Source: Dictyostelium discoideum (taxonomy: Eukaryota). From it: a stretch of DNA of 64,000 nucleotides. The notes under the pieces are model-generated. The model was not told where the DNA came from and searched no databases. It saw only the letters and a list, made by a program, of their open reading frames with translations. Made by a program: the position numbers and the translations under genes. Shown here piece after piece: positions 1,865 through 2,617 of the stretch; within the stretch, counting starts at the first letter, position 1, and each line of letters begins with the position of its first letter. The DNA is taken from assembly GCA_000004695.1 (NCBI GenBank), contig CM000154.2, forward strand, positions 288,001-352,000, read 5' to 3'.

Positions 1865-1922
<58 letters not shown>

Positions 1923-2089
1923 GGGAAAAAACAAAAATGTTCCCCCCGCCTTTAAAAAAAAAAAAATTAAAAATTCCAGGTCCCAAAATTCTTTTTTAAG
2001 CCACCTAAAAAAAATCCAAACGGTTTTTTTATTTTTTTTTTAATAAAAAAAAAAAGGGGGCCCCCCGGGGTTTGTTACTTTAAAAAGGG

Positions 2090-2249
2090 AACGTTATTCC
2101 AAAAGGGTGTTTTTTTTTTTTTTCCCACCAACGTTTAAAATTTTTTTTAAAAAAAAAAAAAAAAGTAATAATAACGTTGCGGGAAAAATAAAAAAAAAAA
2201 AAAAAGTAATTATAACGTTGCGGAAAAAAAAAAAAAAAATTAAAACGTT
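2090..2249. promoter_or_regulatory. Cluster of five AACGTT palindromic hexamers at 2090, 2130, 2173, 2214 and 2244 (spacing about 40, 43, 41 and 30 bp). The last three sit within a reiterated gtaat[at]ataacgttgcgg unit. A G5C6G4 block lies next to the cluster at 2056-2070.
   Basis: Seen directly in the sequence. AACGTT and GC homopolymer blocks are very unusual in an intergenic region that is otherwise over 85% A+T. The cluster lies between the 3-prime end of the GH18-like gene and the ABCG 5-prime region. Confidence 0.4.
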
Positions 2250-2617
2250 GGTATTTATTTCTTTTAATCATTTTTAAACTCCAATACTAATTTATTATTC
2301 CCATCATTTCTAATTCCACAATTATCATATATTATTAGTAATACAGTTTTTTCATTTTAGTTACTTGCATGTATGTAAATTTTAATTCCACTTCAAAATT
2401 GGTAATTACCAATAAATTAAAAAAATAATAATAATAATAATTATTAAAAGATAAATAAAAAAAAAAAAAAAAAAAAAAAATGAATTATTATTATTATTTT
2501 AAATCAAATAATTGTTTTTATATTTTTAAATAAACGAGTTTATTTTTATTTATTTATATTTACAATATATTAATTTTTTCCCCAAAGTTAATTCCTTTTT
2601 TTTTTTTTTTCAATTTA

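Follow-up and report, generated by a model that had tools for sequence, protein, structure and literature searches.

Does a cluster of AACGTT palindromes, found beside blocks of pure G and C in AT-rich spacer DNA, represent genuine sequence, and if so, of what kind? The window that we analysed (the whole stretch of 64,000 bp from chromosome 5 of the D. discoideum AX4 reference) has the AT-rich composition of dictyostelid DNA, and the cluster lies in a spacer of 1.69 kb (929-2617) between the ATG of the ABC-transporter gene abcG and the stop codon of a chitinase-like GH18 gene (Table 1). The initial annotation had listed five AACGTT copies, at 2090, 2130, 2173, 2214 and 2244, and we confirmed all five as identical in an independent assembly; a further copy is present at 1733. 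Measured from the abcG ATG, the clustered copies are 1.09-1.32 kb upstream, and they lie 370-600 bp past the stop codon of DDB_G0287463.

As the main comparison assembly we used GCA_054883475.1 (hereafter L001), an independent and near-identical assembly with a chromosome-scale contig, which was reached via the neighbouring 451-aa GH18 protein. The orthologous GH18-abcG spacer was fetched from nine other assemblies via the abcG orthologues, and the gene order GH18-GH18-abcG is syntenic in all nine. The further independent assemblies L003, L007, L008 and L009 come from a 2025 set of Nanopore and Illumina genomes in which the lab strain AX2-214 is also represented (PMC12745789).

Exon 1 of abcG starts with the ATG at 928 and is followed by an apparent intron (approximately 375-530) and the start of exon 2; the exon 1 reading frame continues to a stop at 455. 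The AX4 abcG protein was absent among the close homologue matches and from the 90% cluster of the orthologues, where the proteins of six new assemblies were present, and the missing entry could reflect another gene model, annotation as a pseudogene or a gap in the index. A second GH18 gene (4797-6152, + strand) is divergent to the first one (2618-3886, - strand). In L001 the GH18 pair is followed by a glutaminyl-tRNA-synthetase-like and a glutamate-dehydrogenase-like gene, and this order is syntenic in D. citrinum. The GH18 protein evolves fast, with 82% identity between D. discoideum and D. citrinum compared to 95% for abcG. Both D. citrinum assemblies contain an LTR-retrotransposon pol gene downstream of abcG (L002, 16071-17248; L010, 9270-10217) with an RVT_1 domain, accompanied in L002 by RNase H and integrase domains; the remaining fetched loci showed no such gene at the equivalent position.

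Table 1. Features of the spacer and its neighbouring genes, in window coordinates.
Feature	Position	Strand	Description	Evidence
abcG, 5' end	1..928	-	full-size ABCG (PDR-type) transporter gene	ORF, gene calls, Pfam, homologues
Distal AACGTT	1733..1738		A-run-AACGTTAT; 25 bp from conserved ATGAGTCAT (1701-1709)
Poly-T tract	1870..1921		T52 in the window, T39 in L001	TRF and alignment
Mis-called ("smeared") stretch	1922..2128			comparison with L001 and fetched loci
Spurious C6 block	1942-1947		within 1922-2128
Masked sixth AACGTT	2019..2024		window AACGGT, true catAACGTTtttt	L001 and other assemblies
Spurious G5C6G4 block	2056-2070		within 1922-2128
AACGTT site (tggAACGTT)	2090..2095		conserved in 5/5 discoideum-clade assemblies
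Decayed site	2103..2108		true AATGTT, window AAGGGT	assembly comparison
TTTCCCAGCAACGTTT unit	2121..2138		best-conserved unit; window G-to-C error at 2128
41-bp tandem duplication	2148..2239		2.3 copies, 94% matches	TRF
AACGTT site	2244..2249		aaAACGTTtgtatttattt in other assemblies
GH18 (chitinase-like) gene DDB_G0287463	2618..3886	-	422 aa, 100% identical to D. discoideum AX4	ORF

Base-calling errors after a poly-T tract

In the AX4 reference, the stretch 1922-2128, which begins directly 3' of the poly-T tract, is an artefact of base calling. L001 and the first 12,184 bp of the window (1-12184) are 99.0% identical; 39 substitutions are concentrated in the 204 bp of 1925-2128, and the remaining approximately 12 kb has 18. 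These 18 substitution columns, all outside 1900-2140, are mostly A/T changes beside homopolymer runs, and differences in run length come in addition. Every one of the 39 substituted window bases copies an adjacent window base, whereas the L001 bases do so in 9 of 39 cases. The fraction of single-base runs in the smeared stretch is 0.357 in the window and 0.627 in L001 (background 0.63 ± 0.07), and the five lowest fractions in the whole 64 kb come from overlapping segments across 1922-2128. Where the window has CCCCCCGCC, L001 reads CACACAGTC; likewise GGGGGCCCCCCGGGG corresponds to TGCGGTTCCCTCGGG and AAACGGTTT to TAACGTTTT, and the CCCACC of the window is truly CCCAGC. The L001 variants are common to four further assemblies (L003, L007, L008 and L009), and the window variants of 1922-2128 are absent from all ten fetched loci.

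This result bears on the G/C blocks, which had been regarded as motifs accompanying the palindromes. Both G5C6G4 and TTCCCCCCGCC (1940-1950) are present in the window, but they are not genuine: L001 reads GTTCACACAGTC and TGCGGTTCCCTCGGG at these places, and independent discoideum-clade assemblies have mixed sequence there (GTTCACACAGTC; GCGGTTCCCTCGGG). The blocks have no genuine counterpart and cannot count as accompanying motifs. The initial annotation had itself offered a low-quality or collapsed assembly as the alternative, which is correct for 1922-2128 with its G/C blocks but not for the AACGTT copies and the 41-bp repeat, which are the same in L001.

Judging from the error pattern, slippage in reads crossing the poly-T tract is the most likely cause. 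Polymerase slippage through a run of about 40-50 T would produce out-of-phase, broadened traces; with such slipped reads as the sole cover of 1922-2128, isolated bases would be overwritten by their neighbours, giving the false C6 and G5C6G4 blocks and destroying one AACGTT. The AX4 reference is listed with 8x coverage (PMC12745789). As in Sanger post-homopolymer slippage or a low-quality single-read consensus, the AX4 errors start right after a long mononucleotide run and span about 200 bp, the wrong bases all repeat a neighbour and so form false homopolymers, and the modern assemblies from long and short reads agree mutually and against the reference. In contrast to such cases, the mechanism is proposed here from the error signature.

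Milder differences were found elsewhere in the window. At seven more positions, between 4152 and 4325 and beside A-runs, a single base departs from L001 in the "copy the neighbour" manner (e.g. AGGAAAAC vs AGGTAAAC). At the three testable positions L003 sides with L001, and at one of them L002 and L005 do so as well; these are probably further reference errors. All nine differences between 6399 and 6516, just upstream of a long T-run, are A in the window and T in L001, and in this comparison of the window with L001 alone they possibly mark another mis-called reference stretch. Where homopolymers differ in length, they are always longer in the window than in L001 (988, 1040-1043, 1210-1216, 2457-2460, 6164-6165, 7347-7349, 9836-9867, 10133-10266, 10640-10645 and 10968-10970).

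The AACGTT cluster in Dictyostelium species

Beneath and beside the artefact, the AACGTT cluster is genuine sequence. From 2129 on, the 41-bp repeat and all AACGTT copies are identical in the window and L001. The sixth site, masked in the window, is orthologous to sites of D. cf. discoideum, D. citrinum and D. dimigraforme, and its flank on the upstream side is aag[tc]aacat. At the place of the decayed site D. cf. discoideum and D. citrinum have AACGTTGC (attattc[tg]agAACGTTgc), and the best-conserved unit is present as CCCAGCAACGTT in every discoideum and citrinum assembly. The tandem duplication holds two AACGTTGCGG sites (2173-2178 and 2214-2219), and position 2250 is G in the window and T in L001, L003 and L007. 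The true extent of the non-coding module is about 1925-2262 (approximately 330 bp). Its six AACGTT palindromes are spaced at 71, 40, 43, 41 and 30 bp, and half of them are extended to AACGTTGC/GCAACGTT. The distal site at 1733 is kept in every group-4 assembly except D. purpureum.

Over the whole window AACGTT was observed 12 times against 12.5 expected, which means no enrichment of the hexamer as such. When 12 sites were placed at random 200,000 times, in no case did five of them lie within 160 bp (four within 160 bp: P = 2e-5). A Markov model with the cluster's own composition predicted 0.5 sites against the six observed, and none of 20,000 trials reached six. In the cluster regions no 6-mer was more enriched than AACGTT, with 20 copies against 0.11 expected, and the 8-mer AACGTTGC was found there nine times against 0.01 expected, although this test is partly circular because the motif itself delimited the regions. 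In the 126 kb of fetched loci all 23 occurrences of AACGTTGC fall within the cluster, and AACGTT was found outside the cluster and the distal site in eight copies in all loci together. Five to six of the 6-11 CpGs of the region fall within AACGTT.

Regarding conservation across strains, the cluster has 5-7 copies in the seven assemblies of D. discoideum (6, 5 and 7), D. cf. discoideum (5 and 5) and D. citrinum (6 and 7). Three copies were found in D. dimigraforme, one in D. firmibasis and none in D. purpureum. Since the cluster is much reduced in D. firmibasis and lacking in D. purpureum, with the genes still syntenic, it is not essential for the gene. The cluster region is no more conserved than the adjacent spacer, with an identity of approximately 64% between D. 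discoideum and D. citrinum (0.64, compared to 0.61-0.77 for other spacer segments), and the sites with their short flanks alone stand out. As the regional identity is just 64%, single sites have persisted while their surroundings decayed. We could follow five classes of orthologous sites across the clades: aag[tc]aacat...AACGTTt; tggAACGTT; attattc[tg]agAACGTTgc, which has decayed to AATGTTG in D. discoideum proper; tttcccagcAACGTTt; and A(n)AACGTTgc[tg]gg. The aligned sequences indicate that the motif persists with turnover of copies and not as a frozen block.

The spacing of about 41 bp had been taken as four helical turns that would place a cooperatively binding factor on one face of the DNA. 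The pair at 2173 and 2214 is the product of the 2.3-copy tandem duplication of 41 bp, and the regular spacing is not conserved in the clusters of the relatives (72/22/31/30 and 87/22/29/39 in D. cf. discoideum; 10/23/60/48/23 and 68/53/26/57/38/43 in D. citrinum). Because spacings differ between relatives, the argument from helical phase fails. A reiterated motif counted three times in the initial annotation was recovered as an 18-mer, GTAAT[AT]ATAACGTTGCGG, found twice (2165-2182 and 2206-2223). Local duplications supply part of the copy number: the AX strains have the 41-bp tandem, D. citrinum a repeat of about 131 bp and L007 an inverted duplication. In this last assembly, from a D. discoideum isolate, the stretch at about 1700-1830 of the L007 locus (spacer positions 1166-1276 in window orientation) is an inverted duplication of ccagaatgttg-T(n)-cccagcAACGTT that gives a near-palindrome of approximately 110 bp.

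A putative regulatory module and its rivals

We cautiously favour, with somewhat more than even confidence, the reading that the artefact of 1922-2128 overlies a homotypic cluster of putative sites for one factor, which would form a distal upstream module of abcG. One sequence-specific factor would bind the AACGTT copies, and the module would act as a distal upstream regulatory element of the gene. Two observations expected of such a cis-module were made, the local over-representation of AACGTT and its retention with turnover at the orthologous position. The conserved promoter-like TGAGTCA and CACGTG and the block 1478-1550 are found in the same spacer. In this sense the cluster probably represents a so far uncharacterised regulatory element that lies upstream of an ABC-transporter gene. 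The earlier suggestion of an array of sites for a dimeric factor is plausible, and it is strengthened by the retention of the cluster in sister species.

Protein binding, factor family, target gene and direction of effect are what we infer here from sequence. The palindrome with its ACGT core suggests a bZIP dimer as the candidate factor, with a Myb-type reader of AACG as the alternative candidate. Instead of abcG, the GH18 gene or an unannotated transcript could just as well be the target.

Other conserved elements were noticed in the spacer. The non-coding block 1478-1550 (ctattaataatttttacaagatttcataaGGTGTGAaagaattcctcgcgattgTCACACCacgaaa) has 100% identity in a comparison of D. discoideum with D. 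citrinum, and it can still be recognised in D. dimigraforme and D. firmibasis. The block comprises a 7-bp inverted repeat (1507-1513 / 1532-1538) and a TATA-like string with a T-run after it; it had no Rfam match, and in D. firmibasis one side of the stem is broken and uncompensated. A conserved promoter-like group at 1678-1790 consists of CACGTG (1678-1683; CCCCGTG in relatives), the palindromic ATGAGTCAT of GCN4/AP-1 type (TGAGTCA), the distal AACGTTAT (1733-1740) and aaacttctttttatag at about 1756-1771, which reads TATAAAAAG when reverse-complemented into the abcG direction.

The rival that survives best is neutral repeat dynamics, in which an AACGTT(GC)-bearing unit has been multiplied by tandem and inverted duplication in an unstable spacer rich in A/T-runs, the species share copies by descent alone and no protein reads the motif. 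The duplications speak for it: the 41-bp tandem in the AX strains, the unit attattcgagAACGTTgc-T(n)-cccagcAACGTTtcaaat present twice in D. citrinum and the inverted copy in L007. It also agrees with copy number and spacing that differ between strains, a regional identity not above that of the flanking spacer and a cluster that decays with phylogenetic distance. However, at 64% identity only about 10% of intact 6-mers are expected to survive between D. discoideum and D. citrinum, whereas four to five orthologous sites are intact in both clades (cat/tcaAACGTTt, agAACGTTgc, cccagcAACGTT and A(n)AACGTTgc). An AACGTT has moreover stayed intact despite a 9-bp indel that distinguishes D. cf. discoideum from D. 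discoideum, the majority of the CpGs of the region lie within the motif, and the duplicated units are lineage-specific, yet each of them bears the motif. We consider the neutral explanation rather unlikely.

An unannotated transcript (a small ncRNA or the + strand hairpin AACGUUGC-U(n)CCCA-GCAACGUU) or a 3' element of GH18 seems very unlikely to us. The inverted 8-mers could form a 9-bp stem, two D. discoideum changes (C to U) retain G-U pairs on the + strand only, and the distance of the cluster past the GH18 stop codon would suit a 3' element. Against this, compensatory changes were found in 0 of 9 pairs, with a covariation term of -0.17, the right arm of the hairpin is missing in D. dimigraforme and D. 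firmibasis, and two one-sided changes are too few to tell RNA pairing from plain site decay. Rfam searches of the window (gathering threshold) and of the corrected spacer (E<=1) brought no family that reaches its threshold. The sole matches were plant miRNA models with E=0.2-0.85, about 80-90 bits under their gathering scores and hence at chance level, and ARAGORN found no tRNA.

That the whole feature including the AACGTT array is an assembly or sequencing artefact is extremely improbable: 207 adjacent bp are demonstrably mis-called and long homopolymers flank the region, but for 2129-2270 the identity with L001 refutes it, and the motif occurs at the orthologous place in seven further Nanopore and Illumina assemblies and the D. 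firmibasis assembly.

Known elements and meaning for Dictyostelium

Our preferred reading, a homotypic cluster upstream of abcG, can be compared to several known systems. The closest functional analogy is the yeast ABCG gene PDR5, which has multiple upstream PDRE palindromes (TCCGCGGA) bound by Pdr1/Pdr3. Similarly, the Dictyostelium cluster presents several copies of a short palindrome, gathered in a few hundred bp on the upstream side of a full-size ABCG/PDR-type transporter gene, and as in homotypic clusters of transcription factor sites, the sites change in number, orientation and spacing from one relative to the next, but the cluster itself is kept. Unlike in PDR5, the motif is a different one and the distance from cluster to ATG, about 1.1-1.3 kb, is long for Dictyostelium; to our knowledge, the Zn2Cys6 regulators are fungal. 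It is quite unlikely, if conceivable, that AACGTT(GC) is the element of a Dictyostelium bZIP or Myb-type factor driving abcG, a counterpart of Pdr1/PDRE-PDR5 that would have arisen within the discoideum-citrinum clade.

The ACGT-core elements of plant bZIPs include the G-box CACGTG, the C-box GACGTC, the A-box TACGTA and the T-box AACGTT. Like them, AACGTT is a perfect palindrome with an ACGT core, and TGAGTCA and CACGTG are found in the same spacer. However, AACGTT has the least-favoured flank for characterised plant bZIPs, and the frequent asymmetric extension to AACGTTGC in the cluster is unlike the classical bZIP half-site pattern.

Among Dictyostelium cis-elements, the G-box/CAE is bound by GBF, TTGA repeats are bound by STATa, and the DUSE of small-RNA genes reads [AT]CCCA[CT]AA. 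The cluster resembles such elements as short, reiterated G/C-containing islands in an AT-rich spacer, and TCCCAGCAA resembles a DUSE plus one extra base; no stable RNA-like sequence and no Rfam match was found about 60 nt downstream of it. In contrast to the AACGTT cluster, neither G-box/CAE, TTGA repeats and DUSE nor the binding site of the bZIP DimB contains AACGTT. The latter is CCCCAC-like and unrelated (PMC3253789). In the papers found, no AACGTT element was described for Dictyostelium and Dictyostelium bZIPs were not linked to AACGTT; searches for the neighbouring DDB_G identifiers, bZIP sites and the CudA dyad yielded nothing relevant beyond the DimB site.

Several specific identities were considered and rejected. 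A tRNA-associated ex-B-box or TRE target was dismissed, as ARAGORN detected no tRNA. An E2F reading of GCGGGAAA (2179-2186) does not hold, since this place is GCGAGAAA in other D. discoideum strains. The G of GAA is missing from most of the clustered sites, which thus do not qualify as heat-shock elements (GAAnnTTC). The DUSE or class-I-RNA promoter reading of TCCCAGCAA fell on its one extra base and the lack of anything RNA-like about 60 nt downstream, and an RNA hairpin between inverted AACGTTGC copies on the lack of covariation.

The findings have two sides. The AX4 reference still has mis-called stretches after long homopolymers, which give rise to motif-like "GC islands". Motif scans of Dictyostelium spacers on this reference will catch such false signals, and the 2025 long-read assemblies can filter them.

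The AACGTT half, as judged by sequence comparison, is a conserved candidate cluster of cis-elements, hitherto undescribed but of a generally familiar type, with no new kind of biology. In about 190 kb (the 64-kb window and 126 kb of loci) a cluster of 5-7 copies is limited to this one spacer. Its retention in cryptic and sister species makes it a concrete, testable candidate element with a plausible target gene, for which AACGTTGC, and also TTTCCCAGCAACGTTT and GTAATAATAACGTTGCGG, are short candidate probe sequences. We know of very few cis-elements in Dictyostelium; if the regulatory reading is true, the cluster would add a new cis-element to this small catalogue and provide a handle for purifying the factor.
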